DNA of 64,000 bases from an uncultured Chloroflexia bacterium (GCA_963765765.1 CAVXYC010000020.1:384001-448000), one strand, 5' to 3'. Shown: positions 6,872-24,019, numbered from the stretch's first letter. Program-made: numbers and translations. The notes: generated from the letters alone by a model not told the origin.

Positions 6872-6894
6872 GTAGTGCGGAAATTATTCCGCAC
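6872..6894 (+). repeat. GTAG-type REP-like palindrome
   Basis: GTAG followed by tgcggaa-atta-ttccgca hairpin. Confidence 0.5.
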
Positions 6895-6942
6895 GACAAG
6901 CATTGGCACGCTCAGATGGCGAACGTAATGATGAACGCGCTG

Positions 6943-8434
6943 CTAACCGAGCGCCCAGTCCCTGGACCGCGCCACCGCGCGCAGCCAGCCAGCATAGAGC
7001 GCCTCTCGCTCGTCCTCGGACGCCTTGGGCTCATACGTCTTCTGGCTCGCCCATTGGGTAGGTAACTCTGCTTGAGATTCCCAGAGTCCCACGCCCAATC
7101 CTGCCAGACAGGCAGCTCCAAGTGCGGTCGTTTCCTGCATGCCGCTAACCTGTATGGGGACGCCGAGTATGTCCGCCTGAAACTGCATCATGAATCCGTT
7201 GGCAGTACCGCCCCCATCAACGCGGAGTGTACGGATAGACTGGCCCGCCTGGCTCATCGCGCCAATGAGATCGCGCGTTTGATAGGCGATGCTCTCCAGT
7301 GTCGCCCGAGCGATGTGCTGGCGCGACGTGCCGCCGGTGAGCCCGATCATAAGGCCACGCGCATACATGTCCCAATACGGTGCACCCAGGCCAACGAATG
7401 CTGGAACGAAATAGACCCCACCGTTGTCCGTAACGGAGCGCGCCAGCGCCTCGGATTCTGCCGCGGTACGAATGATGGCCAGGCCGTCACGAAGCCACTG
7501 CACGGCGGCACCTGCCGTGAAGACGCTGCCCTCGAGCGCGTAGGTACGGTGATCGCCGACGTTACACGCGATCGTAGTAAGCAGGCCTCCGTCCGATCGA
7601 CGCGACTCAGAACCGATGTTGGCAAGCAAAAAGCATCCGGTGCCGTAGGTATTCTTCGCCTCACCGGCCTGGAAGCACGCATGACCAAAGAGGGCTGCCT
7701 GCTGATCACCGGCCATACCACTGATCGGTATCGGAGCACCGAACATTTCGGGCTCAGTCTCACCGTAAGTCTCAGCGCTCGAAACAATCCGAGGCAGCAT
7801 GGACGGCGGCACATTGAGAATGTTCAGCAGATCTGAATCCCATTCAGCAGTAGATAGATTCAGGAGCAGCGTGCGGGAGGCATTGGTCACGTCGGTGACG
7901 TGTGCTCGTCCGCCGGTCAGCTTCCAAACAAGCCACGTCTCGATGGTGCCGAAAAGGAGCTCGCCCGATTCGGCACGCTCCTGCGCCCCATCAACTCTAT
8001 CGAGGATCCAGCGAATCTTCGTGCCGGAGAAATAGGCGTCGAGGACGTAGTCCGGTGCGCTCACGAAAGAGCGGCTCTAGTCCATCCGTGCGTAGTCGGT
8101 CGCAAATCTCCGATGAGACCCGACTCTGCCACACTACGGCGGGGTAGATTGGCCGCCCGGTGGCTCGTTCCCAAACTACGGTGGTCTCGCGCTGATTGGC
8201 AATGCCGATAGCCGCGACATCCTCCGCTCTTGCTCCCGACAGCTCCAGCGCCATACGACCGACTGAGACAGTTGTGTTGAATATCTCCAGCGGATCGTGC
8301 TCAACCCAGCCCGGCTCGGGGAAATGTTGCCTGATCTCGCGATCGGCCGTAGCAATGACCCAGCCGCCAGCGTCGAACACGAGCGCCGCGGAGCCGGTTG
8401 TACCTTGATCAAACGCAAGGATGAAGCGCTGAAT
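6943..8434 (-). CDS. glpK: Glycerol kinase (frameshift near 8050)
   Basis: DQGTTGS, NQRETT, YFSGTK, GDQQAAL and KNTYGTG motifs spread over two frames; start codon uncertain. Confidence 0.93.
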
Positions 8435-8463
8435 GAGAACACCTCAGCGGCGTGGGGAGCGGA

Positions 8464-8510
8464 TACGCCCGCGGGATTTCGAAGCCTCGACCGACGGTTA
8501 GAAGCCCGTT
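8464..8510 (-). pseudogene. Degenerate tRNA-Arg(TCT) 3' fragment (att-like, fragment A)
   Basis: Minus strand AACGGGCTTCTAACCGTCGGTCGAGGCTTCGAAATCCCGCGGGCGTA aligns with the 3' part of the tRNA at 23275-23347. Confidence 0.7.
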
Positions 8511-8860
8511 GGGAAAGTCATCCAAAGAGTAGCATAGCCGTCCATTTAAGACGGCCCATGGCCACGGCTAATGTCGTTCACTCGGGCTTGCTACAGCAGC
8601 ACTTGGTACGTCGATGTGCCCGGTGCAGCCCTCGACATCATCGTGTGCGTGGCTTAGTGGCCGAGAGGCTGGCAGTGAAGGCGCTGTAGGCGGGTCGGCG
8701 ACAGAGGACATGGCCGGAGTATGCCAACTGACATTGGGCACGGGGCGAGCTCTTGCTACGCTGGTGGGGCCGGCCATGCTGCGCCGATGCGGGCGCTCGG
8801 ACTAGAACAGCATTGTCTGGGCCAGTGCGGAATTTTGCTAGGGTGAGGCGAGAATACGAC

Positions 8861-9796
8861 GTGCGCGTGACGTTCTACGGCGTCCGTGGCTCGGTGCCGA
8901 CTCCCGGACCGTCGACCGTGCGGTATGGCGGAAACACTTCCTGCGTCGAGGTGCGCCTGGCTGACGGCTCGCTCATCGTCTTGGATGGCGGGACCGGCAT
9001 TCGCGAGCTCGGCAAGAAGCTCATTCAAGATTGCTTCACCGATCGAATCCATCTACTGGTCACGCACCCGCACCTGGATCACATCATTGGGCTGCCTTTC
9101 TTCGGGCCGATCTATCGCAAGGAGACCCACGTCGTGCTCTACCCGTTCGGAAGCCGCCGGGCCGACCGATGGAGCCGGCCCATCGTCTTCGACGGCGAGC
9201 ATTTCCCCGTCCAGTTCGCCGAGCTCCCTTTGCGGCTCGAATATGTGCACTCAGACGGAGATGAAGTCCGCATCGGCTCGGCGAGTGTCCGCCGCATCCG
9301 GCTGAATCACCCCGGCGGCTCGAACGGCTTCCGTATCGACGACGAGGATGGCGCATCGCTGTGTTACATGACGGACAACGAGCTTGACTCGCCGGGCATG
9401 GTAAACGCGTCGCCCACGGACCTGGCGCGGTTCGCCCTCGGAACGGATCTACTCATCCACGATGCGCAATTCCTCCCCTCGGACCTTCCAGCCAAGAAAG
9501 GGTGGGGCCACTCGCTGGTCGGAGAAGCCCTCGAGCTAGGCCGCGATACCGAAGCCCGCGGGGTTGCTGTCTTCCATCATGACCCCGAGCGCGACGATGA
9601 TGCGATGGACCGAATCGGCGTCGATGCCGCCCGCTGGGCGCGGGCACACGCGCCCGCGATGCAGACGTTCGTCGCGCGCGAAGGGCTCACGCTCGAGGTT
9701 TCGTCTCGGGGAGCGACTATTCACCATCGCGTCGCCCGAAGCGTTGTCCGGCAGCGAGACTCAGAACGTGGCGCCCTCGGTCAACGTCCAGCTTGA
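8861..9796 (+). CDS. MBL-fold metallo-hydrolase
   Basis: FYGVRGS.P, YGGNTSCVE, THPHLDH, WGHS and FHHDP motifs. Confidence 0.9.
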   Translation: MRVTFYGVRGSVPTPGPSTVRYGGNTSCVEVRLADGSLIVLDGGTGIRELGKKLIQDCFTDRIHLLVTHPHLDHIIGLPFFGPIYRKETHVVLYPFGSRRADRWSRPIVFDGEHFPVQFAELPLRLEYVHSDGDEVRIGSASVRRIRLNHPGGSNGFRIDDEDGASLCYMTDNELDSPGMVNASPTDLARFALGTDLLIHDAQFLPSDLPAKKGWGHSLVGEALELGRDTEARGVAVFHHDPERDDDAMDRIGVDAARWARAHAPAMQTFVAREGLTLEVSSRGATIHHRVARSVVRQRDSERGALGQRPA

Positions 9797-9902
9797 ATCA
9801 CAGGTGCTCACTCGAAATAACACTTGCACACCGAGTGCCGAGGCGACAACCCCACCAACCGTGAAAACGACGGGTGCCGAACTCAGATTCAGTCGTTTTC
9901 GC

Positions 9903-9946
9903 GGTACGCCCCGGTGGATTCGAACCCCCGACCAACGAGGTAGAAG
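9903..9946 (-). pseudogene. tRNA-Arg(TCT) 3' half starting at the anticodon loop (att-like, fragment B)
   Basis: Minus strand CTTCTAC CTCGT TGGTC GGGGG TTCGAAT CCACC GGGGCGT ACC; no D arm or 5' acceptor strand. Confidence 0.8.
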
Positions 9947-10024
9947 TCCGATGGATAGCTGTCCATAGTCGTCCAGAACAATGCGCTGCTACTCGAAAGC
10001 AGTCGTTACGAACGCTTTAGGTCC

Positions 10025-11256
10025 CAGGGTCTTTTCGTTGTTCGATTGTGACGATGGGGCCACGAGGAAGGAGTGTCGACCGGCGAGGCTGGGGATCTCC
10101 CCTCGAGCGAGGTGGGGAATTCTCCGGGAGGGGACGCATGGACGCGGTCATTCCATCGTTACTCGAAGCCTTGGCCCCGGTGCCGGATCCACGCCATCGC
10201 CGCGGCTGCCGGTACTCCGTGGCGGCGATCCTGATGTTCGCCGTGTGCGCCATGGTGTCGGGGGCCCGCAGCTTGTATGCGATCGCCCAGTGGGGGCGGG
10301 ATCAGGGCTCGGCCCAGATCCGCGGGGCGTTCGGCATCACCCGGGCCACTACCCCGAGCGTGGCGACGGTGTTTCGGGTCTTTCGCGATCTCGACCGCGA
10401 CGCCTTCGAACGGGTTCTGGCCGAGTGGCCCGCGTCCAGGGGGCCGTTTCCACGGGGGCGGTGGCGCTGGACGGCAAGCACCTCCGCGGAATCCACGGCG
10501 AACAGATTCCGGGCGTGCATCTGGTGGCCGCCTTCGCGCATCGGGATGGGCAGGTGCTGGGCCAAAAAGGGGGACGCTGAAGGAGCACGAGCTGCGCCTG
10601 GCGGAGGCGCTGCTGGCCGATCTCGACCTCCACGGCGTCACGGTCACCGGTGACGCCCAATTTTGCGAGCGTGCCCTAAGTCATCAGGTGGTCGCGGCGG
10701 GCGGCGCGTATTTCTGGGCGGTCAAAGACAACCAGCACCGGCTCCTGGAAGCGTTGGTGGCGCTGTTTACCCTGGAGCCCCCACCCGGTGACGTTCGCTC
10801 GGCGGCGCAGCGCGGCCGGGACGGCGATCGGCAGGAAGAGCGCACGCTGCGGACATCGACGCTCCTGAACGACTACCTCGATTGGCCGCATGTGGCCCAG
10901 GTCTGCACCATTCGACGGGTTGTCACGCGGCACGGGCGGACCACCCGGAAGCCGGGTATGCCCTCACGAGCCTCCACCCGGATCAGGCCGACGCCACCAG
11001 CCTGGCCGCCCTTTGGCGGGGCCATTGGAGTATCGAGAACTGCTTGCATTGGGTGCGCGACGTCACCTTCGATGAAGATCGCAGCCAGATTCGCACGGGC
11101 CATGCGCCCCAGGTTGTGGCCGCCCTGCGCAATACCGCCATCGGGATCCTGCGCCGCGCCGCCATACCAACATCGCGGCGGCACTGCGCACCTATGCCGC
11201 AAGGCCGCTCGCCATCTTGGCGCTCACCGGGGTCACGTGACAATGAAAAGACCCTG
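10025..11256 (+). mobile_element. ISAs1-family insertion sequence, 1232 bp
   Basis: Terminal inverted repeats CAGGGTCTTTTC(G/A)TTGT; 10-bp target duplication CTTTAGGTCC at 10015-10024 and 11257-11266. Confidence 0.95.
10138..11240 (+). pseudogene. ISAs1 DDE transposase, about four frameshifts
   Basis: VPDPR..RG.RY, ALDGK.LRG, VTGDA, VKDNQ and RGHWSIEN.LHWVRDVTFDED motifs in successive frames. Confidence 0.88.
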
Positions 11257-11436
11257 CTTTAGGTCCGCCGTGTATTGCCACAGTCCAGCAGGATTGCTAC
11301 AAATTACACGATCCTGCAGGGCTACCACTGAATCTGTTCCTGGCCTTTATCCGATTGGCTACCCTACTGATGGAAGCAAGGCAATGAGCAGCGCGATCGG
11401 AACGGTCCACACCGGCCGCGCCAAGGCCGTCGTCAC

Positions 11437-12306
11437 CTAGACCTCGAAGCAGTCCGGCCCGGCCGTCACCTGACCATCGAACCGCTGGCCATGCCAGTCG
11501 GCGAAACAGTTGGACACGACCCGCCGGGGCTGGGGCGCGTTGACGCCCCACTCGTACTCGTCCACGTAATCGTCGTCGGTGTCGTGGTCGCTGTCGACCT
11601 TCACGGTGGTGCAGAATTGGCCGGATATCGTGACGAGATAGCGGCTCTCGATGCGGGCAGAGTCGAAATCGTGGCCCCAGGTCTCGATCTCCGCACCCAT
11701 CGACCAGTAGAGCGCATAGCGCTTCTTCCACGCCTTGAACCGCAAGTGATCACCACTGTGGAAGAAGTCCCGCTGAGACGGGTTGGTCGACGCCAGCGCC
11801 ATGACTTCGCCGGTGCATTCGACCAGCGCAAAGTCGCCCTGCCCGAGCGCGGCCTGCGCGGCCTGCAGGTCGCGAATCGCGCCGGAGAGCACTCCGAGAT
11901 CCATCCGGCCGATCCCGCCGGGCCGCCGGGCGGCGGACTCCAGCTCTGCCGCCGCCAAGTCAACTCGCCGGCCGCCGAGGACCAGCCCCCCGGCGGGGTC
12001 GGTGATCAGGTCGAGGACCGGGTCGCCGAAAGTGAACGCGGGGTCCCCGTCGGAGCTGCGGCGATCGTACTTGCCGAAGCGCACCGCGGTGCCTTGCAGT
12101 CCGCCGCCCGCCACCTCCAGTGACAGGAGCCGCGCGAGGTACTCGACGAGCTCCTCCGGGTCGCGGAACTCCCAGCGGGCCGGGGTTAAGAAGCCGCCCC
12201 GTTCGGGGAAGCGGAACTCAAGCCGCGCCTGATCGCGCTTGACGAGTTCGCAGTTGGACGGTGCAGTGAGGTCAATCGGCCTAGCCCTTCCGGCGCGGTT
12301 TGGCAT
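11437..12306 (-). CDS. Hypothetical protein, 289 aa
   Basis: Long ORF with natural composition; AAGGAG RBS before ATG 12306; no family recognised. Confidence 0.8.
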   Translation of the reverse strand: MPNRAGRARPIDLTAPSNCELVKRDQARLEFRFPERGGFLTPARWEFRDPEELVEYLARLLSLEVAGGGLQGTAVRFGKYDRRSSDGDPAFTFGDPVLDLITDPAGGLVLGGRRVDLAAAELESAARRPGGIGRMDLGVLSGAIRDLQAAQAALGQGDFALVECTGEVMALASTNPSQRDFFHSGDHLRFKAWKKRYALYWSMGAEIETWGHDFDSARIESRYLVTISGQFCTTVKVDSDHDTDDDYVDEYEWGVNAPQPRRVVSNCFADWHGQRFDGQVTAGPDCFEV

Positions 12307-12673
12307 GGTGAAACTCCTTTTTCTCCGGCCAACGCTCTCAGTCGGTGCATCGAAGGTCGTCAATCGCGTCGTGAAGCCGCGGAGGAAAGCGCGGCGCAGT
12401 TTACGCTAGCTCTCGCGCCGTGATGGTCAATCCCCCAATCTGACTACGACGCTGTCGAGATTCTGAAACGCCTGAGCCTACGACGATGGCGAATGTCTGC
12501 GTCCGAGCAGGGGAAACTGGTCCGACTTGCCCATCGAGAAGGCCGCCTAAGGGGCCCGTGTGGGCGGTGAATGGTTCGCTGGTCAGGGGCCGGAGCTAAT
12601 TCAGCCGATCAGCTCGGCGTGATCGCAGAATCTCCGCTGGTCCTGGTCGTCGATGCTTATACTCTTCGTCGAA

Positions 12674-12859
12674 ATGACAAACGCCCAAACTACGCAAGCG
12701 CTTGCCTGCTTTCACTGTGACGCCGCCATCAGCACCCGGGGCAGGACGGCTGTCATGCTCGAGGCGATCGCCAGCGGAGTGGCGCTCAAGCAGCGCCAGG
12801 ACCGGGGCGCCTGGGCCGACCCGTGGGTCTGTTCGATGCACCGAACCAAACGCACGTGA
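12674..12859 (+). CDS. Small hypothetical protein with CxxC...CxxH
   Basis: CFHC and CSMH pairs in 61 aa; no clear RBS. Confidence 0.4.
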   Translation: MTNAQTTQALACFHCDAAISTRGRTAVMLEAIASGVALKQRQDRGAWADPWVCSMHRTKRT

Positions 12860-13135
12860 CGGTGAAACACACACTCCCCAATCCGTAATGATCTCGATGG
12901 ATTAACCCCATACCGTTGTCGTTGGTATAGGGGCTTCCCCGGAGCCTCGGCGTGCGGGTGTGCGGACGGTGTGGAACTGACCGTCCCCGCTCTAGCTTCG
13001 CCGTTCGGCGCCCGCCTACAGCATGCATGGACGCATGCACGCCGAATGCGCGAAAGACCGCACGCCCCGACGAGCATGAATGCATACAGACGCGCCTGTC
13101 ATCACTTCAACACGATCCAATCAGGAGAGAAAAGG

Positions 13136-13436
13136 ATGAAATCACGCGATCACGATGCGCTGGAGACCAAGCTCCGTGAGTTGGTGAGTAACGCGAACCA
13201 GGACAGGGACGAACTGCTGCTGACGCTTCCGGGTGGCGCTTCACACCGTTGAGCGGAGCCCGTCGGAAGAGGCGGTCAGGGCGCTGCGATTGGCCGCGGC
13301 TCCCATCTTGGACAAACTCCGAGCGGAGTATCGGGCTGCCGACACACGGACGGCGATGGCCTCGCGATGTTCCGCTGGCTGCGTGCCAAGCTGGCGAACC
13401 GCGACTCGGCGGCAGCACGCGACTCGGGTAATGTGA
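13136..13436 (+). pseudogene. Small helical hypothetical protein, frameshifted near 13230
   Basis: AGGAGA RBS; MKSRDHDALETKLRELV...LLTL continues as VALHTVERSPSEEAVRALRLAAAPILDKLRAEY in another frame. Confidence 0.45.
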
Positions 13437-13793
13437 CGGGAAGGCATGAACCATAATGCACAGCTCGCTGAATTCGGCGATGTTCAGCTCGGCCGAGTTG
13501 GGTGCTCCGGCAGCGAACCTCAGGACATCTCCCGGGCTCTGCGCCGGCATATCGCTCTTTCTCTGCCGATCACCTGACGGATGAAGAGCTCGGCGTCCGG
13601 TACGATCTAAGAGGTGTCGTCTGACCGAGCTGGTTGGCTCGACTCTGCTCGATCGAGCTGGTCTCGCAACCTGAGGTCGTGTTTGAGGCTCACGAGTTCG
13701 ACGCGATCTCCATAGTGGGAGGGCCGTACTTCCTCATGGAGCCATCGAGGTGCATCTTACCCCTGTCCTACCGAACGGTAGCGTCGACGACCC

Positions 13794-15296
13794 GTGATGA
13801 ACTCCGCCCGTATTGCCATCGGTCCGTTGTTAATTGCCGTAGGCGTACTGATAGTTCATCTCGCTACCAGCCATCAGTACGGGTTTCATCGCGATGAACT
13901 GGGATTTCTGGAAGATTCCCGATTTCTCGATTGGGGCTACGTCTCGTATCCGCCGGTGACACCACTCCTGGCTCGCGTAGCCAGCGAGCTGTTTGGCGCC
14001 TCCCCCGCGGGCATGCGGATGCTTCCTGCGATTGCACAATCAGTGGCGGTTCTGCTGTCCGGATTGATCGCGCGAGAGCTTGGGGGCGACCGATGGGCTC
14101 AAACGGTCGCGGCCGCCGCGGTGGCCATTGCTCCTTTCGCTGTTCTCACGGGCGGCCTATTCCTGTACGTCTCGTTTGAGTACGTCATCTGGGTGGCGAT
14201 CGGCTACTGCGTCGTCAGACTTCTGAAGTCGAGCGATCCGCGGTGGTGGGTGCCGATTGGTGCTCTCGTGGGACTCGGACTGATGACCAAGTACACCGTC
14301 GCCGTGTGCGCGATCGGGCTAGGAGTCGGTCTCCTATTGACCCAGGCGCGAGGCATCATTCGATCACCGTGGTTGATCGCTGGAATCTTGATCGCTGTGG
14401 TGACGATCACCCCCAACCTGATCTGGCAGGTGCAGCACACCTTCGTCTCGCTTGAGTTCTTACAAAGCATTCGCGAGCGCGACGTGCGGATTGGTCGAAC
14501 GCAGGGATTCCTGCCCGAGCAGCTCTACGTTGGCGCGAGCGTGGTGACGCTCCCTCTCTGGCTCGGAGGACTCTGGTTCTACTTGCGGTCTGCCTCCGGG
14601 GCTCCATTCCGCACATTGGGGTGGATGTATCTCGTCTCGTTTACCGTGTTCCTGGTCTCTCAGGGGCGCTCCTACTATCTTGCACCCGCGTATCCCACGT
14701 TGCTTGCGGCTGGAGCTGTAGCTCTGGAAGGACTGATCGCTCATCGATCGCGTCAGTTCCGACGAATCACCACTACTGGGGTCGGTTTCACCCTGGTAAT
14801 CGGGGGGCTGGTCAGTGCCGGGCTGATGCTGCCGATTGCGCCCATCAACTCTCCGCTTTGGGAGATTTCGTCAAAGGTTCACGATAACTTCACCGAGCAA
14901 ATTGGCTGGGATGAGCTGGTGGAGACGGTGGCGGCCGTCTATCACGCGATTCCTGAAAATGACCGCGCGGGAACCGCGGTTCTCGCGGCGAACTACGGCG
15001 AGGTGGGTGCTCTCAATCTGTACGGTGCCACGCATGGATTGCCGAGCCCGTTGAGTGGCGTCAATACATCCTAGTATCGAGGTCGCAGTAGTCCAGAGCC
15101 GACGCAGTTCATCGTCCTCGGCTATCGCCGGGACGCGGCGATGACGTTCTTCGAACACTGCGAGCCTGCGGCGATGCTCTCCTTTCGCTCGGGACTGAAG
15201 AACGAAGAGAGCCGTGACCATCCGGACATTTTCCGATGTGACGGGTTGCTTCGGCCCTGGCCGGAGACATGGATGGCACTCCGACACTTCGGCTGA
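13794..15296 (+). pseudogene. GT-C (GT39/PMT-like) membrane glycosyltransferase with in-frame TAG at 15072-15074
   Basis: YGFHRDEL, WGYV.YPP and GLGLMTKYT motifs; frame stays open for 73 more codons (..NEE...DIFRC..PWPETW..LRHFG) after the TAG. Confidence 0.85.
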
Positions 15297-15350
15297 TCAC
15301 CAGTCTGCGGATCGCCGAAATCCGTTCGAGTGGATTGGGTGCCCGACTCT

Positions 15351-15470
15351 GACCCCGTGATACCCTGACGTTCAGCATGTATGGACGCTACTCACTGGGT
15401 GATCCCTGCGACCCCCGTGATACGCTGATGTGCAGGATGTGCGGTCGCTCTATCCTCGGCGATCCCAGCA
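15351..15470. repeat. Two diverged 60-bp tandem repeats
   Basis: ccccgtgatac.ctga.gt.cag.atgt..gg.cgct.....ct.gg.gatccc.gc shared by 15351-15410 and 15411-15470. Confidence 0.8.
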
Positions 15471-15520
15471 GACTGAAAGGATCAAAACGCCTTCAACGCG
15501 GCGATTGAGAGGGATCGAAA

Positions 15521-16024
15521 ATGTCCACGTCTGCTCTCGCGCAAGTCATCGAGGAGTATCACCGAGCGCTGGATGCCTTTGTAAAGGGAGACCCGGAGCC
15601 CGACAAGCGGCTGTATTCGCGGCGTGACGACGTCAGTCTCGCCAACCCTCTGGGCCCGCCTGTCCGTGGGTGGAGCCAGGTGGAAGCAACCATAGACCGC
15701 GCGGCTGCCCCGCTCCGTGAAGGCGAGGTCCGCGGCTTCGAACGGATCTCAGAGTACGTCACGGAAGACGTGGCCTATATCGTCGAGATCGAGCGATACC
15801 GTATGAAGATCGGCGGCGCCGACGCTGTCACCTCCGTGTCTCTTCGCGTGACGACGATATTCCGACAGGAGGATGGTGAGTGGCGTATCGTACATCGTCA
15901 CGCCGACCCCATCACCGGTCCGAGACCAGCGGAGTCTGTCTCAGAGCTGGTGCAGTCCCAACGACCCCAACCAGTCTCGCAGCCCGCCGAGAACGACCCG
16001 ACAACTGGACCAGTGTCGCCTTAG
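15521..16024 (+). CDS. SnoaL/NTF2-like family protein
   Basis: LANPLGPPVRGW and LRVTTIFRQEDGEWRIVHRHADP motifs. Confidence 0.88.
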   Translation: MSTSALAQVIEEYHRALDAFVKGDPEPDKRLYSRRDDVSLANPLGPPVRGWSQVEATIDRAAAPLREGEVRGFERISEYVTEDVAYIVEIERYRMKIGGADAVTSVSLRVTTIFRQEDGEWRIVHRHADPITGPRPAESVSELVQSQRPQPVSQPAENDPTTGPVSP

Positions 16025-16284
16025 CAACGGAACGAAGCCGTTATTGCTGAGTCGGCTCGGCTGCACTCGGGAATGAACTACGGCGCACCGCCTGACCGCC
16101 CCAGCGTGGGACTGGCTTTGTGAACTTAAATCGACCCAGGATGAGCCCCTGGCCGCTGTCTGAAAGCTCCGACAGCGGTTGGATCCATGGCGGTCGAAAT
16201 AGACGGAGCTGTGCCCGGATTTCGTTTCGCGCCAAAACGACCAAGGTGTGGCTCCACCATACGATCTAGATAAGCCGAGCTGGC

Positions 16285-16578
16285 TCAGGCCTTGCGAACG
16301 AGGCCATCTTCCACGGTGCGCACCTCAATCTTGGCGATATGCGGGCTAGTCTGGCCCGAATAGGCGGCCCGCTCGGGCGACGCTTCGTAGACGTTGAGGG
16401 TCTCTTCCGTCTCGAACTGGCGCACCCATATGAACTCGTTCTGCGGCCGGTTGACCCAGGCCGACAGGACGGAGACCCTGTAACTCGCGCTGGTCGGTAC
16501 GATCTTCTCGTTGAAAATATCGATCCAGGAATCCATCATCCCGCGGTTGATCGTGTAAATGCGAACTTGTGTAATCAT
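16285..16578 (-). CDS. NIPSNAP family protein (single domain)
   Basis: QVRIYTINRG.MDSW and NEFIWVRQF motifs; GGGAG RBS. Confidence 0.8.
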   Translation of the reverse strand: MITQVRIYTINRGMMDSWIDIFNEKIVPTSASYRVSVLSAWVNRPQNEFIWVRQFETEETLNVYEASPERAAYSGQTSPHIAKIEVRTVEDGLVRKA

Positions 16579-16636
16579 GGCGCCAAGACTACTCCCAGGC
16601 AATGAGAAGCGTCAATGTGTGACCGCTTTCAAGATG

Positions 16637-16677
16637 TGGCGGAGGAGGGATTTGAACCCCCGACCAAGGGTTATGAG
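16637..16677 (-). pseudogene. tRNA(CAT) (Met/Ile2-type) 3' half starting at the anticodon loop (fragment C)
   Basis: Minus strand CTCATAA CCCTT GGTC GGGGG TTCAAAT CCCTC CTCCGCC A; no 5' half. Confidence 0.8.
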
Positions 16678-17068
16678 TCCGATGGATGTCCGTCCGTAGC
16701 TGTCCGTACTGGGCCTGGAATTCAGGCGGCGAAGATCACTGTGTGTTGCTACAGTGCGGCGGGGTTACGACATGGGTCGCTACAAAACTGCGTTCTCGCG
16801 GGCGGGGGCGGCGCAGATACCCCTCCGCATTCTGAAGCTGGATCATCGTAGGGCTAGCCGAGCCGTGTGTTGCCTTGCTCGTCATTCCGTCGTGGGTGGC
16901 ATTTCACCACCCGGCCCGAGACCTAAGGGACACATCCTCGATCATTCGCACGCTAGTTACCCAGCCTGAAAGAGGAGTCAGCTTTCAGACGGCGCAGGCG
17001 ACGTGCAAGTTTTGTTGACGCAGGGCCGCGCTAACACGATCATCAACGTGGGCTGACCAACTGGGCCG

Positions 17069-17305
17069 TTACTTCCACAGGTGGTGGAGGACCAGCCCGA
17101 TTTCAACTACCTCACCGACCGCGGTTGCCCACCAATCACGCCGAGACAGTTGCTGTTCCCATCCCAGCCTTGGTCCTACGAGCCCGTGCACCAGCAGCCA
17201 CGGCGCGTAGAGCGCGTAGTATCCAACTAACAGCAGCCCGACTATGAAGTCGGTCCTATGCTCGTTGGCGCTGCAAAGCCCGGGCATCGGCGAGGGTTCA
17301 TTCAT
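17069..17305 (-). CDS. Small hypothetical membrane protein
   Basis: Hydrophobic segment; ATGA overlap with the upstream ORF. Confidence 0.45.
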   Translation of the reverse strand: MNEPSPMPGLCSANEHRTDFIVGLLLVGYYALYAPWLLVHGLVGPRLGWEQQLSRRDWWATAVGEVVEIGLVLHHLWK

Positions 17306-17526
17306 TCACGCGTGAACTCTGCAGGATCCCTTAGGGCGCCATCAACGATGGCAACGGTGGCGAGTGTGGAAAAGGCGACCCATCCGACTATTAGGATCGG
17401 GACGACGACGGCGCTTGCGCCGTTCCAGCGCATCCACAGGACGAGCGAGCGAATCCGGTCAGGTCGTGCTTCGAACGATCCAGGCATCTCAACTCACCCC
17501 ATAGCCAGCACCGCGAGTATTACCAT
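17302..17526 (-). pseudogene. Membrane protein remnant with in-frame TGA at 17494-17496
   Basis: MVILAVLAMG*VEMPG...AVVVPILIVGWVAFSTLATVAIV reads in one frame. Confidence 0.35.
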
Positions 17527-17574
17527 TGAATCTAGGACTGTCAAATGCGTCAATGTGGACCCGCTTTCAAGAGA

Positions 17575-17614
17575 TGGCGTAGGGGGCATTGAACTCCCGA
17601 CCAAGGGCTTAAAA
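17575..17614 (-). pseudogene. Degenerate tRNA 3' fragment (fragment D)
   Basis: Minus strand TTTTAA GCCCTT GGTC GGGAG TTCAATG CCCCC TACGCCA; related to fragment C; anticodon ambiguous. Confidence 0.6.
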
Positions 17615-17714
17615 TAGACCACGCTTCCCGACCAAGGGATTCGGTGCCTTCGGCCAGTTTCTTCGTCCGGATCGCCCGGCTCTGTCCCGCAGTCCCTTGG
17701 TCTGGACCTCGAAC

Positions 17715-17813
17715 GTCGGCGAGGACGGACTCTAGCGTCGCGAAGTCCTGCTTGACAATCGCTTCCATCTGCTTCTGATACCGGGCGATGATTGCGTCTT
17801 CGTTGCCTGGCAT
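17715..17813 (-). pseudogene. N-terminal remnant of an NTF2/SnoaL-like protein
   Basis: AGGAG RBS then MPGNEDAIIARYQKQMEAIVKQDFATLESVLAD; similarity ends abruptly. Confidence 0.45.
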
Positions 17814-17939
17814 CTCGGGCTCCTCTCACCACACGCTCGGAGCGTGGCGCCTGGTACGTCGCACTCGCGGTGCAGGAGGCACTGTAGCCGCCATAATCGG
17901 GAGCGCATCTTCAGGATGCTCTACGCGCGCGAGGGGACC

Positions 17940-19115
17940 ATGTCAGGAACGATCAACCGCGACGTCGCCTACGGCCAGACCACCATCCCCGTCGGGATTC
18001 GCTCCCGCTTCGTGGACAACAACAACGGCATCACCATGCACATCCTGGAGGCCGGCTTCGAGGAGGCCGGGCGGCCACTCGTGCTCCTGATGCACGGCTA
18101 TCCGGAGCTGGCGTATAGCTGGCGCAAGGTGATGCTGCCGCTGGCCGAGGCCGGCTACCACGTGGTGGCACCGGATCATCGCGGCTACGGACGCTCGGGC
18201 GGCACCGACGTCACCTTTGACGATAGCCTCTGGCCGTGGCGGCCCATGGAGCGCGTGCGCGATACCCTCGGGCTGGTCTACGCGCTCGGCTATCGCAGCG
18301 TGGCGATGATCGTGGGGCATGACTTCGGCGCGGGAGTCACGGGCTGGTCCACGCTGATCCGGCCGGACGTGTTTCGCTCGATGGTGCTGATGACGGCGCC
18401 GTTCGAGGGCGCGCCAGCGTTCCCGTTCAATACCGCGAACGAGCCGCCGAAGCCCTCAGCCCCGGCGGGCCCGAGCGTCCACGACGACCTGGCGGCGCTA
18501 CCCCATCCGCGCAAGCACTACCACTGGTACAACGCGCGGCGCGAGGCGAACGACGAGTGGATGGGTGCGAAGCAGGGCATCCACGATTTCCTGCGCGCCT
18601 ACTACCACGTGAAGAGCGCCGACTGGAAGGGAAACGCGCCGCACCCGCTGACGGCGTTCAGCGCAACCGAGCTCGCCAAGATGCCGCGCTACTACGTCAT
18701 GGACCTTGACAAGACGATGCCGGAGAACGTGGCGCTGGACATGCCCACGCCCGAGGAGATCGCGGCGAATCGATGGCTCACGGAGGAGGAGCTGCGCGTG
18801 TGCTCTGATGAGTACACGCGCACGGGCTTCCAGGGCGGACTCAATTCGTACCGCGTCCAAACGGACCCTACCTATTCGGCTGAGCTGCGGGTGTACTCCG
18901 ACCGCACCATCGACGTGCCCTCGTTGTTCATCAGCGGTACGAGCGACTGGGGTGTGTACCAGCGGGCCGGACGTCTGGAGGCGATGCGCGACACGATCTG
19001 CACCGATCTGCGGGGCATCCACCTGCTGGAAGGGGCCGGGCACTGGGTCCAGCAGGAACAGCCCGAGGCCGTCAACCGACTGCTACTGGAGTTCCTCCAG
19101 GGTCAGGCGGGCTGA
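17940..19115 (+). CDS. Alpha/beta hydrolase, epoxide hydrolase-like
   Basis: HGYPE.AYSWR, GHDFG and GAGHWVQQE motifs. Confidence 0.92.
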   Translation: MSGTINRDVAYGQTTIPVGIRSRFVDNNNGITMHILEAGFEEAGRPLVLLMHGYPELAYSWRKVMLPLAEAGYHVVAPDHRGYGRSGGTDVTFDDSLWPWRPMERVRDTLGLVYALGYRSVAMIVGHDFGAGVTGWSTLIRPDVFRSMVLMTAPFEGAPAFPFNTANEPPKPSAPAGPSVHDDLAALPHPRKHYHWYNARREANDEWMGAKQGIHDFLRAYYHVKSADWKGNAPHPLTAFSATELAKMPRYYVMDLDKTMPENVALDMPTPEEIAANRWLTEEELRVCSDEYTRTGFQGGLNSYRVQTDPTYSAELRVYSDRTIDVPSLFISGTSDWGVYQRAGRLEAMRDTICTDLRGIHLLEGAGHWVQQEQPEAVNRLLLEFLQGQAG

Positions 19116-19246
19116 GAGCAGGCGCTGCCGGAGAAGGGGCCGGAGCGCGGCTATCCCCCGGGGAGCGCGTCGATCCTTGCCGCTTCGTTCCGGTATCCGC
19201 ACCACCTACGAGAATTGACCCATCGAGTACCGAAGGAGCACTAGCC

Positions 19247-19894
19247 ATGTCACTTGTCCGCGTCCACAACTTCTCCATATCGCTCGACGGCTTCGGCACT
19301 GGCGAAGGTCAGAGCCACGACGCACCTTTCGGTCACGCCGGCGAACGGCTGCACGAGTGGATGTTCGCCACACGGTTCTGGAGCGAAATGGTTGGTCAGC
19401 CCGGCGGGAGCAGCGGCATCGACCACGCCTTCGCCCAGCAGCACGGTCCGGGGATCGGCGTCGAGATCATGGGCGCAGGAAAATACGGCTACCCCGGTTG
19501 GCACGAGGATCCGGAGTGGAAGGGCTGGTGGGGTCCCAACCCGCCGTTTCACACACCGGTCTTCGTCCTCACCCATCAACCGCGCCCTTCGATTGAGATG
19601 GAGGGCGGTACGACGTTCCACTTCATCGACGCTTCTCCTGCCGAGACGCTCAAGATGGCCCGCGAGGCGGCGGGCGGCCAGGACGTACGCCTCGGTGGGG
19701 GTCCGACCGTGATCCGCGACTTCCTTGCTGCTGGGCTTATCGACCACATGCATATCGTGGTGGTCCCGATCCTGCTCGGCCGAGGCGTACGCCTCTGGGA
19801 CAGACTGGAGGGCGTCGAGAAGGACTATCAGGTCGAGGCCATCTCCTCGCCCAGCGGAGTCACGCATGTGACGTTCACCCGTGCGGGCGTCTGA
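19247..19894 (+). CDS. Dihydrofolate reductase/RibD C-terminal family protein
   Basis: SISLDG, IMG, PVFVLTH, GGG and VPILLG.G motifs; AAGGAG RBS. Confidence 0.9.
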   Translation: MSLVRVHNFSISLDGFGTGEGQSHDAPFGHAGERLHEWMFATRFWSEMVGQPGGSSGIDHAFAQQHGPGIGVEIMGAGKYGYPGWHEDPEWKGWWGPNPPFHTPVFVLTHQPRPSIEMEGGTTFHFIDASPAETLKMAREAAGGQDVRLGGGPTVIRDFLAAGLIDHMHIVVVPILLGRGVRLWDRLEGVEKDYQVEAISSPSGVTHVTFTRAGV

Positions 19895-19969
19895 CCCGAC
19901 TCGGTCGAGAACTGAGGGCGCGGGTAGGGCTCGAGCCGTGTTTCATATGCTCAATGAGGAGGTATCTAC

Positions 19970-20443
19970 ATGGCCGACGATAGTGTCAGCGCGACCATGG
20001 TCATCAACTCGCCGGCGGAGGCAATCTTCGCGGTTTTAACCGATCCAGCAAAGCACGCCGCGATCGATGGCACCGGCTGGGTCTGCGAAACCGTCGACAG
20101 CAAGCCGTTGACTGCCGCCGGGCAGATTTTCCGGATGTCCATGTACCACCCGAACCACCCGGACGGGAACTACCAGACGGCCAACCAGGTCCAAGTGTTC
20201 GACCCGCCGAGCGCCATTTCCTGGAAGACAGGCTACGACCCCGGCGACGGTACCCTGCGCTTCGGCGGCTGGTTCTGGCGCTATGACCTCACGCCAGCGG
20301 GACCCTCGAGCACCTCAGTCACGCTCTCTTATGATTGGTCAGCATGCTCGGACTCCGTCAGAGAGCTCATCGGATTCCCGCCGTTCCCTCCGGACCATCT
20401 GGGCAACTCGCTCGCCCACCTCGCCGAGCTGGTTACCTCATGA
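19970..20443 (+). CDS. SRPBCC family protein
   Basis: INSPAEAIFAVLTDP..H..IDG and WRYDLTP motifs; GAGGAGGT RBS. Confidence 0.88.
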   Translation: MADDSVSATMVINSPAEAIFAVLTDPAKHAAIDGTGWVCETVDSKPLTAAGQIFRMSMYHPNHPDGNYQTANQVQVFDPPSAISWKTGYDPGDGTLRFGGWFWRYDLTPAGPSSTSVTLSYDWSACSDSVRELIGFPPFPPDHLGNSLAHLAELVTS

Positions 20444-20581
20444 GCAGCCCGCACTCCCAGAGCCCATAGCCTGACTCCTGGTCCAGCGCCCAGATGAGTC
20501 GCGACCGGTAGAAGTCCGTCTCGGCAGGGAACGGATGTACGCTTGCAGTGGCGGCCGGACGCGGGCTAGCAAGCCCGATGG

Positions 20582-21130
<549 letters not shown>

Positions 21131-21213
21131 TCCGTAAGGGTACGGCGGATGGGCTAGCGTAGCAAACTATGCCGTTCACGCCAGCCGCGGTCCATTTTTT
21201 CGATGCTCGTTGC

Positions 21214-21328
21214 GTCTAACGGAAACGCGTTCAGATAGGGGGCATGATCATAAATGCGGCCGGCGAGCGTAGCGAGCAAGGCCGCTTCAGCAGTGATCGC
21301 CCCGACAGCAGCAACGCGGTGTTAGAAC
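21214..21328 (-). mobile_element. Solitary integron attC site
   Basis: Minus strand TTCTAAC-accgc-GTTGCTGC ... gcggcc/ggccgc stem ... CTGAAC-gcgtttcc-GTTAGAC; matches the R''-L''...L'-R' layout. Confidence 0.7.
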
Positions 21329-21660
21329 TCACAACGCCCTGTGCGCTGACTAAAGATCAGATGGGGTCGGAGAAGCCAGCGAACTCAGCTGGGTGCCGAC
21401 CGCGACGGCGCACTCGCGCCGGAGTTCGGTGAGCAGTAAGCGCGGACGGACGACCGGCGTGAGCAGCTCCGCGACGCCGCGGTAGCCATCATCTGATGCT
21501 TTCGGCCAACCAGCTGCAAAATGCTGGACGCGGCGAGCGACGGACCGTACAACTGGAACGACTGATCGCGTGGTCAGTCGAGAGCTCTGGTGGGACTGAG
21601 ATTTCGCCCGCCATCGCAAACCCCGCTCAAGGCGGGAGGGTAGTGCCAAGGAGGTAAGAA

Positions 21661-22509
21661 GTGGCTGAGCACATCAACGGACCTCTCTACTGGGAGCAGC
21701 TGGGCAAGAGTGGACTGCCGGTGGCGTTCGTACATCCCAATCCGATGGACCACACCTGCTGGATCTACCAGATGGCGCACCTCTCGACCTGGTTCCGCTG
21801 CATCGGCATCGATCTGCCTGGCTACGGCAAGTCTCCGAAGGCCTTGCCTGGCTTGACGATGCAGGACATTGCGCAGGCATGCTGGGAAGCGATCGAGGAT
21901 GTCACGACCGACCCAGCGATCATCGTCGGCGAATCAGTCGGATCGAGCGTGGTCCAGCACATGGCCAACATGCGGCCGGAGCAGACCCTGGCCGTAGTCG
22001 TTTCGGGTACCGGGTTTGGCGGAAACAAGGATTTCACGATCAAGCGTCGCCGCGAGTACAGCGCCCGCGGAGTCGCCTTCCGCCACGACCACACCTTCCA
22101 GGACTACAGCCCCGGGTTTCGCGCCAACCCGCTGGCCAGCTACTTCGCGCGCATCTTCGTTGAGCGCAACCGCTGGGCAGATGCGGACACCATCGTGGAG
22201 ATGTTCCGCGCGCTCGGCGAGCCCGACCCTGAGTGGCTCCATTCCGGCATCAAAGCGCCGATGCTCGTCATCACGGGGAGCGAGGACAACTCACACGACT
22301 CGACGTGGGAGCTACAGCGCAACGTACCCGACTGCGAAGTCGTCAGCATCGGAGGCGCCGGCCACGCCTGCAATATGGAGCAGCCCTGGGAGTGGGACGC
22401 GATCTTCCTGGAGTTCCTGGAGCGGCGGGGCCTCTTCGAGGGCGTCGGCGCCGACATCGCCTCCACGGGTGCGCCTATCCTTGGAGGGAAGGTGCCCGCC
22501 CGAGCCTAA
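21661..22509 (+). CDS. Alpha/beta fold hydrolase
   Basis: DLPGYGKS, GESVG, G.ED and GAGHACNME motifs; AGGAGGT RBS. Confidence 0.9.
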   Translation: MAEHINGPLYWEQLGKSGLPVAFVHPNPMDHTCWIYQMAHLSTWFRCIGIDLPGYGKSPKALPGLTMQDIAQACWEAIEDVTTDPAIIVGESVGSSVVQHMANMRPEQTLAVVVSGTGFGGNKDFTIKRRREYSARGVAFRHDHTFQDYSPGFRANPLASYFARIFVERNRWADADTIVEMFRALGEPDPEWLHSGIKAPMLVITGSEDNSHDSTWELQRNVPDCEVVSIGGAGHACNMEQPWEWDAIFLEFLERRGLFEGVGADIASTGAPILGGKVPARA

Positions 22510-22558
22510 ACCCGGCTCGGAGCGACAGTGCAGCGCAAGGGGCGATCTGCGCAAGGGC

Positions 22559-22680
22559 TCATTCTTCGAAGCAGGCGCGCAGACAGCGAAGCACTTCCTC
22601 GAGCCGCTCGGTTGGGATCGCGCCGTACCCCAGGACGAGGCCCAACCGCGTCGACCTGATCGCTATCGATGAGAGCGGAC
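22559..22680 (-). pseudogene. C-terminal remnant of a MocR/GntR PLP-dependent regulator
   Basis: Manual translation PLSSIAIRSTRLGLVLGYGAIPTERLEEVLRCLRACFEE*. Confidence 0.6.
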
Positions 22681-23274
22681 GGACCCGACGGGCCAGGCGT
22701 GGGTTACGTTGGACCCGACCGCAAAGGCCAGCACCCACGGGAGTGTCCAGGCCTGGCTTCCAAGGGACTTAGTTGGTCCACTCACCGGATACCAAGCTGC
22801 CGGGTTCGGCGCGGCCGTTATCCGGAGATAATTCTGCTCTTTACGCTTACAGCGTGGTGTCGGGCCAAGAGCAGGCATTGACTTCGCCAGCCGATTTATC
22901 GGCGCTTGCAAACAACATCCTGGGAAGCAAGGCCGTCCGCGACCGCGCAAACATCCAACGTGTATATCGCGAGACTGAACAGTGCCCTCTACCCCGATGC
23001 GCTTGCTACCGTCCCGGAGTCCCGGATACATGGGGAGCGATGATTACGGCCATCGGATCCGGTGGATCCGAGATCGAGCGAAAGGGCAAAGCTCGGAATA
23101 GAACGCCCTCGATGTCGGGACGGACGCTTTGAGTTCGTTGGTCAACCATCGAAAAGTTCTTAGGTCCGACCAGAGACCATGATTCTCTTGCCAGATTTGA
23201 AGCCAAGGAAGAAAAAGTCCGTTGGTCTAGAGCCGTAAATGGAGGCAGAAACGCGCCGATCCTGAGTTTGGGGG

Positions 23275-23347
23275 CGCGCCCGCCGAGATTCGAACTCGGG
23301 ACCAACGGCTTAGAAGGCCGTTGCTCTATCCACTGAGCTACGGGCGC
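23275..23347 (-). tRNA. tRNA-Arg(TCT)
   Basis: Full cloverleaf GCGCCCG TA GCTC AGTGGATA GAGC A ACGGC CTTCTAA GCCGT TGGTC CCGAG TTCGAAT CTCGG CGGGCGC G; CCA not encoded. Confidence 0.97.
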
Positions 23348-23358
23348 GGAATGTCGGA

Positions 23359-23367
23359 ATTATAACA
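23359..23367 (-). promoter_or_regulatory. Extended -10 promoter of tRNA-Arg
   Basis: TGTTATAAT 11 nt upstream of the tRNA 5' end. Confidence 0.7.
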
Positions 23368-23401
23368 GTGGCTTAGAGGGCGCCCGAGGTACGCTGAGCT
23401 G

Positions 23402-24019
23402 ATGACAGTCTGGGGATTTCTGTCCGATATCCATGGCAATCTGCCAGCGCTGGAGCGTGCTCTTTCGCAATGCCGCGAACGTGAAGTGGAGCGGTACGCA
23501 TTCCTGGGCGACTTTCTGGGTCGCGGCAATCCCGATGGCGTCATCGATCGCGTGCGTGAGCTTGGTAGCGTCGTGATCACGGGTAATCGAGACATCGATT
23601 GGGCCGATCGAGTCAGTGAACGGACACGCGAGTACGTGAGCGCACTTCCCCACCGACTCACCTGCAAGTCATTCGTCGTGGCTCATGGGGATCCCAAACT
23701 GGACAAGCAGCTTAACGTCAACGATCTTCGCCGCGGAGCGCCAAAGACCTATGACCTGATGCACGACCTTGGCGTTCGCCTCTACTTCTTCGGGCACACG
23801 CACTATGCCAGGACGTGGACAAAGGAAAGCCGCACTTCGCCGCCTTGTCTCGCACCGTCTTCTCGACTTCAGCTGGCTGAGGTCCAGGATAAGGCCGTGG
23901 TCATCGTGAATGTGGGCACTACGGGATTGCCCTTCCCCGGGAAGGGGCCGGCGTCATTCGTCATTCTGGATGACTCGATTGATGGTTATGTCGAGCATGT
24001 AGTGATTTCGAAGTCGTAA
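23402..24019 (+). CDS. Metallophosphoesterase family protein
   Basis: SDIHGN, LGD, GNRD, HG, GHTH and NVG motifs. Confidence 0.9.
   Translation: MTVWGFLSDIHGNLPALERALSQCREREVERYAFLGDFLGRGNPDGVIDRVRELGSVVITGNRDIDWADRVSERTREYVSALPHRLTCKSFVVAHGDPKLDKQLNVNDLRRGAPKTYDLMHDLGVRLYFFGHTHYARTWTKESRTSPPCLAPSSRLQLAEVQDKAVVIVNVGTTGLPFPGKGPASFVILDDSIDGYVEHVVISKS

Follow-up and report, generated by a model that had tools for sequence, protein, structure and literature searches.

A tRNA-Arg(TCT)-anchored row of integrase-less segments in a Chloroflexota genome, probably decayed tRNA-targeting integrative elements in tandem

The DNA analysed here (the window, G000:C20:384001-448000, 64,000 nt) lies on an 893-kb contig (C20) of a metagenome-assembled genome (MAG) of an uncultured Chloroflexia bacterium. 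The subject of this report is the interval between an intact tRNA-Arg(TCT) gene and the gene glpK, which is divided by four tRNA 3' fragments, A to D, into the segments S1 to S4. The genome (G000) comprises 6.49 Mb in 33 contigs, with an estimated completeness of 91.8% and an estimated contamination of 6.85%. A protein-anchored scan gave soil Chloroflexota MAGs as its nearest named relatives, and all eight public runs holding part of the stretch (small shares, 0.05-0.21) are labelled soil metagenome. G001 is the sole other species of the genus that was compared, and G002 belongs to the neighbouring genus g2. From the sequence of the window alone, the original prediction had read the interval as an island without an integrase, being either a graveyard of serially integrated elements or a cassette-like array served by an integrase in trans. 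The tRNA gene and the four fragments, all on the minus strand, were found where they had been predicted:

23272-23348, minus strand: intact tRNA-Arg(TCT) (ARAGORN; Rfam, 74.7 bits), on the left attachment-site (attL) side of the array
17575-17611, minus strand: fragment A, a decayed tRNA-Met 3' half with a duplicated partial core in front
16636-16680, minus strand: fragment B, a tRNA-Met(CAT) 3' half with one base deleted, running to the 3' end
9903-9951, minus strand: fragment C, a 3' half of tRNA-Arg(TCT) type from a foreign allele, with a TCT anticodon
8464-8511, minus strand: fragment D, the displaced ancestral tRNA-Arg(TCT) 3' half, decayed
6943-8442, minus strand: glpK (Pfam), split over two frames by a frameshift near 8046-8048

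The tRNA-Arg(TCT) is the only tRNA in the window by ARAGORN and Rfam. In all four fragments the D arm and the 5' strand of the acceptor are missing, and, as predicted, they represent at least two anticodons, CAT in B and TCT in C. Alignment of B against the tRNA-Met(CAT) of the same genome, which sits on another contig (G000:C14:106364-106438), revealed identity at 45 of 45 aligned bases, or 97.8% over 46 positions with one gap, and the genome-wide BLAST E-value was 1e-14. The identity begins at tRNA position 28, which places it in the anticodon stem, 3 nt short of the loop, so the predicted start of the fragments at the loop itself has to be corrected for B. Fragment A matches tRNA-Met at 33 of 37 positions, with a decayed anticodon loop, and shares 72% identity over 65 nt with B and its downstream flank, including about 30 nt past the tRNA end; judged by eye, the left part of A lies about as far from the Arg as from the Met sequence. 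Fragment C has its best match (40/47) in the tRNA-Arg(TCT) of G002, and its T arm resembles those of both tRNA-Met and the genus-g2 tRNA-Arg(TCT). Over a 20-nt core, C and B are 95% identical (19/20 nt). Fragment D matches the tRNA-Arg(TCT) of G001 at 41 of 50 positions. The hallmark of islands in tRNA genes (tDNA islands), a displaced cognate 3' fragment downstream of the tRNA on the same strand, is thus present in C and D. The fragments do not all match the anchoring tRNA, as A and B are tRNA-Met halves.

A generic hidden Markov model (HMM) of tRNA 3' halves, trained on 34 other tRNAs of the genome, detected C (E = 0.006) and B (E = 0.038) in the whole genome, with neither A nor D reported at E ≤ 10. 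With the search confined to the window, the intact tRNA scored 5e-5, C 6e-5 and B 3.7e-4. As generic halves, A and D fall short of significance, so both rest on specific homology and synteny.

Comparison with G001 revealed an empty site. On its contig L003, an intact tRNA-Arg(TCT) at 103-177 has glpK directly next to it, and the window from 8511 to 7095, covering D and glpK, aligns with L003:127-1544 at 70.5% identity, with D as the syntenic counterpart of the 3' half of the G001 tRNA. Therefore, the 14,760 bp at 8512-23271 constitute an insertion that separates the tRNA from its displaced ancestral half. The uninterrupted site that belongs to the definition of a tDNA island is thereby found, on one genome of another species, and glpK is the native downstream neighbour of tRNA-Arg(TCT). 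Upstream, a methylmalonyl-CoA mutase gene adjoins tRNA-Arg(TCT) in three of the three genus-g2 genomes examined, and the window tRNA shares this neighbourhood apart from two extra genes. The orthologue of glpK in G001 is a single open frame, and the shift in the window copy marks either a pseudogene or a mistake of the assembly.

The present tRNA-Arg shows no difference from the G001 tRNA in its 5' part (0/46) and six in its 3' part (6/27; Fisher p = 0.0017), two of the latter changes being compensatory T-stem pairs. Such a split is expected if an incoming element supplied the 3' part by a crossover upstream of position 47. Judged from this comparison, the 3' part from position 47 onwards is a replaced, foreign allele. 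As for an intact element at tRNA-Arg(TCT) in genus g2, neither of the two loci searched (L006 and L007) holds an integrase within about 16 kb downstream or tRNA-half repeats downstream of the tRNA.

Every half in the array is preceded by an element right end, the arrangement tested for as a sign of accretion. Right ends of two types (RE1 and RE2) and one insertion sequence (IS) were located at the junctions of A, B and C:

17612-17702, minus strand: RE2 (type-2 right end), directly upstream of A
16681-16786: RE1 in front of B, the last approximately 105 nt of S2
9952-9997, minus strand: proximal part of RE1 at C, resuming at 11257-11301 beyond the IS
10025-11256, plus strand: ISAs1-like IS bounded by 17-bp terminal inverted repeats, its 10-bp target duplication lying at 10015-10024 and 11257-11266

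RE1 lies upstream of B, of C and of the displaced tRNA-Met half (right attachment site, attR) of an island on contig C14, and is therefore seen with both CAT-type and TCT-type halves. Against the C14 right end, the copy at B is 90.5% identical over 74 nt (16633-16705) and 88.6% over 44 nt (16743-16786), and the copy at C 80.7% over 83 nt (9916-9997) and 82.2% over 45 nt (11257-11301). Additional homology lies some 40-60 nt upstream. A 30-nt RE1 pattern occurs at exactly three sites in G000, namely these three, and in none of 38 other genomes of the order with up to 3 mismatches. Fragment D is preceded by a degenerate RE1-like stretch in S4. RE2 has counterparts in G001 (L004:352-427, 77.6% over 76 nt) and in G002 (L009:6742-6839, 78.6% over 98 nt). 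By eye, the G001 copy is a run of 14-nt repeats holding an inverted tRNA-Met core; the window RE2 is its diverged homologue, and the repeats are read in the G001 copy alone.

The 70-nt stretches in front of 12 halves of the genome hold 19 copies of the motif GGAC, against 3.8 expected, and none of 20,000 resamplings reached 19. The motif is usually present as two copies one helical turn apart, and these pairs look like arm-type sites of an integrase. On their other side, A, B and C are each followed by a left-end-like trailer, that of C containing a hairpin, which resembles the left ends at places with an integrase relic after a half (C14, C1 and C20:608671). D is followed by native flank with no trailer. 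The ISAs1-like IS is inserted in the RE1 that precedes C. It has five full-length copies elsewhere in the genome (96-97%), and target duplications were found at the window copy and four others. The transposase of the window copy reads in three frames.

No integrase was found in the island, in agreement with the original prediction. None of the 27 matches of a genome scan with PF00589 (E ≤ 0.1) falls inside it, and none of 80 open reading frames (ORFs) of at least 70 aa at 8176-23305 has a recombinase domain in a Pfam scan, besides two IS transposase pieces. Scans of the island ORFs with NCBIfam and PHROGs added no integrase, and a tblastn search of 8001-24000 with 20 integrase queries from the same genome, ORFs and relics, gave a best E-value of 0.03. 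The array thus lacks the internal integrase that belongs to the Islander definition of an island. Apart from the IS transposase, S1 to S4 have the make-up of cis-mobilizable elements (CIMEs), being flanked by attachment sites and free of recombination and transfer genes.

Integrases were found beside such sites elsewhere in the genome, as the prediction had suggested looking for, in the form of broken members of one family at other tRNAs. The tRNA-associated integrases of the genome have 30-60% mutual identity; about 11 are truncated or split relics, and one is full-length (400 aa, with a SAM-like and a catalytic domain) at tRNA-Lys on contig C15. The 4.5-kb island on C14 contains, in this order, tRNA-Met, integrase pieces (two with PF00589 matches, L001:6528-7013 and 6880-7305), a split dehydrogenase gene, RE1 and a tRNA-Met half, after which comes another integrase relic. 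This island shows a less decayed state of the same architecture.

Two further loci of the genome carry halves. C1:236797-237255 (L014) has an Arg(TCT)-like half (46/54), a left-end trailer and an integrase relic with a 104-codon open frame; neither tRNA search finds a tRNA-Arg(TCT) on contig C1, so this array piece stands apart from its tRNA. Outside the window, C20:607889-608670 (L013:3889-4670) holds a same-strand cluster of non-cognate halves within 800 bp, in the order truncated tRNA-Leu(TAA) (26 nt), truncated tRNA-Lys(CTT) (23 nt) and full tRNA-Thr(CGT) half. GGAC repeats stand before each of them, an integrase relic follows the cluster, and the whole is the far end of an approximately 60-kb island at tRNA-Thr(CGT). 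The truncated tRNA-Leu and tRNA-Lys halves (C20:607889-608162) look like products of off-target integration.

Differences between genomes were found at the tRNA-Met halves. In the window the order is RE2, A, S2 with RE1, B, trailer and ORF105, a gene for a small conserved protein in S3, whereas in G001 (L002) it is AbiEi/AbiEii, RE2, tRNA-Met half, trailer and ORF105. A unit of about 935 bp, comprising S2 and one half, is thus present in G000 and absent from G001 exactly at the tRNA-Met half. In a metagenome contig (L067), a right end of a third kind precedes the tRNA-Met half and its trailer; ORF105 comes next and, about 130 nt further on, another tRNA-Met half, which makes ORF105 a 0.55-kb one-gene unit flanked by two tRNA-Met halves. 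An alignment of six junctions (A1) has the tRNA-Met half as the sole block common to all; upstream stands either RE1 or RE2, and downstream the B junction of G000, G001 and L067 are collinear. The three genomes have three different upstream partners at the same tRNA-Met half, with ORF105 as the constant downstream partner. The prediction that segments are gained and lost at fragment boundaries accordingly held for the tRNA-Met sites; at the Arg sites only a difference of the whole array was seen.

The idea that ORF105 is a native neighbour of tRNA-Met was rejected, as none of nine other Chloroflexota loci with homologues (61-78% identity) has tRNA-Met or a half nearby. A pattern scan of metagenomes for the B/ORF105 junction returned L067 only. 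Right after the ORF105 stop, G001 L002:3853-3880 and L067 (minus strand, about 457-475 of the reverse complement) resemble the first 14-27 nt of tRNA-Arg. In L002 this stretch is fused to sequence that in the window adjoins the intact-tRNA-Arg side of S1. An AbiEi antitoxin gene and a truncated AbiEii toxin gene (L002:1115-2696) lie just upstream of the RE2/tRNA-Met-half junction of G001.

Based on these comparisons, we propose that 8512-23271 probably represents a tandem array, built by accretion from tRNA-targeting integrative elements and since decayed to a CIME-like state, with the cargo kept and the integrases lost. The attachment site (attP) of such elements, which would belong to one tyrosine-integrase family, would consist of a right end with paired GGAC repeats, the 3' part of a tRNA from the anticodon stem-loop onwards and a left-end trailer. 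Upon integration, a crossover placed between the anticodon loop and the T stem would rebuild the tRNA with the copy of the element and shove the old 3' half downstream. Repeated events may then have stacked the segments from S4 (oldest) to S1 (newest). Later deletions would have removed every integrase, an IS would have landed in one right end and intact cargo would have stayed, leaving the segments as CIME-like units flanked by attachment sites without recombination genes. Accretion at tRNA-Arg accounts for D as the native half, for C as an allele that the first element delivered, and for the 3' part that the tRNA has today.

The segments and their cargo, assigned by Pfam where stated, are as follows. 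S1 to S4 carry zero to about five genes each, on both strands, and the cargo ORFs are open. The G+C content of S1 is 63-67%, compared with about 58-61% in the flanks.

17612-23271: S1, 5,660 bp, cargo only
21661-22509, plus strand: alpha/beta hydrolase (S1; Pfam)
20765-21130, minus strand: RibD_C piece (S1; Pfam)
19970-20443, plus strand: SRPBCC/polyketide-cyclase-like protein (S1; Pfam)
19247-19894, plus strand: RibD_C protein (S1; Pfam)
17844-19115, plus strand: alpha/beta hydrolase (S1; Pfam)
16681-17574: S2, 894 bp, no recognisable gene, ending in RE1
9952-16635: S3, 6,684 bp, with ORF105, SnoaL-like and PMT_2 genes, repeats, an unknown ORF, the IS and RE1
16285-16602, minus strand: ORF105 (S3), small conserved protein, with a promoter-like stretch right after B
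15521-16024, plus strand: SnoaL-like protein (S3; Pfam)
13794-15074, plus strand: PMT_2 glycosyltransferase (S3; Pfam)
13196-13427: non-coding multi-copy repeat (S3)
11437-12363, minus strand: unknown ORF (S3)
8512-9902: S4, 1,391 bp, one gene and a degenerate RE1-like end
8753-9796, plus strand: metallo-beta-lactamase-fold hydrolase (S4; Lactamase_B_2, E = 7e-12)

Within S1, the alpha/beta hydrolase stretch 17853-19110 has a 96.8% identical copy at G000:C19:221639-222899. Homology of the two copies ends within a few bases of the ORF ends, with unrelated flanks; gene conversion between paralogues is our guess. The repeat in S3, about 230 bp (13196-13427), has at least 12 copies in the genome with 77-89% identity and no match in Rfam, and often has a 44-bp companion repeat (12581-12624 in the window) 0.6-1.6 kb away. 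A 147-codon ORF across it (13107-13550) was rejected as a gene family, the copies matching across shifting frames as non-coding sequence does. Between the PMT_2 and SnoaL-like genes, two adjacent 57-nt direct repeats (15353-15469), 74% identical, stand 60 nt apart.

Several observations weigh against a decayed accretion array. Simple accretion at tRNA-Arg predicts Arg halves at all junctions, and two of the four are tRNA-Met halves. The cargo is intact with all integrases gone, as would also be expected of a system that had no integrase of its own from the start. G001 L002 joins ORF105 to S1 sequence in an order circularly permuted relative to the window, the joint holding a 14-nt tRNA-Arg 5'-like piece (E = 0.001, one query), and the proposed model leaves this arrangement unexplained. 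For the empty site there is a single other species, whose glpK is just 70.5% identical, and L003 starts 102 nt upstream of the tRNA, so that upstream synteny falls outside that contig. In the window the half-tRNA HMM gave A and D the non-significant E-values of 0.23 and 0.48, and a likely chance match at 2617-2650 (0.13) outranks both. The source is a MAG with estimated contamination. The HMM values, together with the Rfam tRNA model, which reports none of A to D at E ≤ 10 and yields only an 18-nt piece of the tmRNA model within B, are what would speak for chance tRNA resemblances in ordinary chromosome. Yet B, C and D are backed by BLAST to tRNA-Met, the half-tRNA HMM genome-wide and the syntenic alignment of D with the intact G001 tRNA, by which chance is refuted for these three; A shares its 65 nt with B, flank included, and the whole interval is absent from the G001 site. 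A chance origin of the fragments is thus hardly credible.

A working gene-collection platform, with integrase-less cassettes flanked by attachment sites and moved in trans among tRNA-half sites across tRNA identities, would account for the order of right end and half kept at four junctions, with a trailer at A, B and C, as well as for the presence or absence of the S2 unit, the ORF105 unit of L067, the three upstream partners at one half, the second cluster of non-cognate halves on C20 and a full-length family integrase to act on them. However, A and D are decayed, the IS splits the arm next to C, the tRNA-Met-type integrase of C14 is in pieces and the Arg-type relic of C1 is down to 104 codons, whereas the sole full-length integrase of the family is located at tRNA-Lys. 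RE1 is absent from the 38 other genomes, giving no sign of spread, and S1 and S3 are multi-gene segments of mixed orientation with their own spacing, unlike cassettes. We regard such a platform as unlikely, and the cassette half of the original prediction is not supported, whereas its graveyard half is supported by the empty site in G001, D, the replaced 3' allele, the flanking ends and the broken integrases elsewhere. The broadest form of the platform, in which one tyrosine-integrase family docks at any tRNA 3' half with a similar core and small units are shuffled between tRNA-Met and tRNA-Arg in trans, is a speculation to which we give little credit. The tRNA-Met halves might also stem from a homologous, illegitimate or IS-mediated rearrangement involving a tRNA-Met array and the tRNA-Arg array, or from a chimeric assembly join. 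The array piece on C1 without its cognate tRNA, the IS and the many-copy repeat of S3, which could mediate recombination, and the estimated contamination would fit this, but the B/ORF105 junction is found independently in G001 and L067, and random rearrangement would lose both the constant strand and the order of right end, half and left end, while a chimeric join on an 893-kb contig would probably need longer shared sequence than the 37-49 nt of the halves. This origin therefore appears very improbable.

For A and B within a decayed accretion array, three candidate routes may be considered. Elements of tRNA-Met type may have integrated off target into an Arg half, a route that would be favoured by the C/B core identity of 95%, by RE1 occurring with CAT and TCT halves and by the truncated tRNA-Leu and tRNA-Lys halves on C20. 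S1 to S3 may instead have arrived as one composite with internal tRNA-Met junctions, to which the circular permutation of ORF105 and S1 in G001 points, or two arrays may have been rearranged, a route suggested by the C1 half with its integrase relic away from tRNA-Arg(TCT).

The region offers a worked example of a tRNA-anchored island losing its integrase, in which D, C and the present 3' part record successive hits, and the same genome holds a less decayed stage at tRNA-Met. In soil MAGs, regions of this sort would be overlooked by island finders that require an integrase or cognate fragments. Of wider interest are the tRNA-Met halves with the same right end in a tRNA-Arg array, together with the second mixed cluster in the genome. 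If look-alike cores are indeed used off target, integrases would have a natural route to switch tRNA targets. Were units such as ORF105 in L067, S2 and S4 shuffled in trans, this would be a tRNA-based, integron-like gene-shuffling system with sites not bound to a single tRNA.

Integron cassette arrays consist of gene-bearing units between recombination sites of the same orientation, with intI, attI and the promoter Pc at the head. The window array is likewise a row of units with sites in one orientation, but its junctions are tRNA halves with arm-type flanks and not attC hairpins. No intI, attI or head promoter of this kind was found, with no tyrosine recombinase within or next to the array, and the units are not the single, mostly promoterless ORFs of one orientation found in cassettes, as their gene number ranges from zero to about five, with both strands in use. 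CIMEs and their accretion were reportedly described by Pavlovic and colleagues in 2004.

Nested and composite islands are exemplified by CGI48 of Shewanella (PMC8978831), and secondary-site and tandem integration by SGI1 (PMC2297512). In such cases an island can sit within or behind another one, and look-alike secondary sites can serve an integrase; for the tRNA-Met halves, both are candidate routes. CGI48 and SGI1 have intact recombination genes and experimental excision, whereas the window array is deduced from relics. In the tycheposon islands of Prochlorococcus, as outlined by Hackl et al. (10.1101/2020.12.28.424599), incoming elements push older ones deeper into a tRNA-anchored island, and scattered partial tRNAs, fragmented integrases and retained cargo are found as in the present genome, although each tycheposon island has its own tRNA and matching integrase, unlike the window array. 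Hallmark genes of tycheposons did not come to light in the window array, where no search aimed at them was made.

In the tDNA islands treated by Hudson, Lau and Williams (2015, PMC4383910), a regenerated tRNA and a displaced cognate 3' fragment in the same orientation mark the ends. Similar to the window, islands recognised by Islander and TIGER can have several fragments behind one tRNA, and the identity block starting from the anticodon arm resembles the anticodon-centred attP class of that study, with the crossover itself placed by inference. Its 3,919 islands include four arrays of at least three members, with one integrase required per member; the window array, without any integrase, would fail this filter, and where the fragments there are cognate, two of the four here come from tRNA-Met. 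A narrow literature search found no description of halves from a second tRNA inside such an array, and the supplements of these papers may list cases.

The ssrA islands of Dehalococcoides, from the same phylum Chloroflexota, are tandem and bounded by direct repeats of the 3' end of the target, with a conserved motif just upstream of each repeat, according to the account of McMurdie et al. (2011, PMC3146451). Fifteen of them are described there as lacking an integration module and are proposed to be cis-mobilizable (CIME) or fixed. They differ from the window array in the target (ssrA against tRNA), in the enzyme (a serine recombinase against a tyrosine recombinase family) and in having only cognate repeats, where the window has mixed halves. 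Taken with these systems, a decayed tRNA-anchored island stack is a known kind of feature, and the twist here is the presence of tRNA-Met halves in a tRNA-Arg array.

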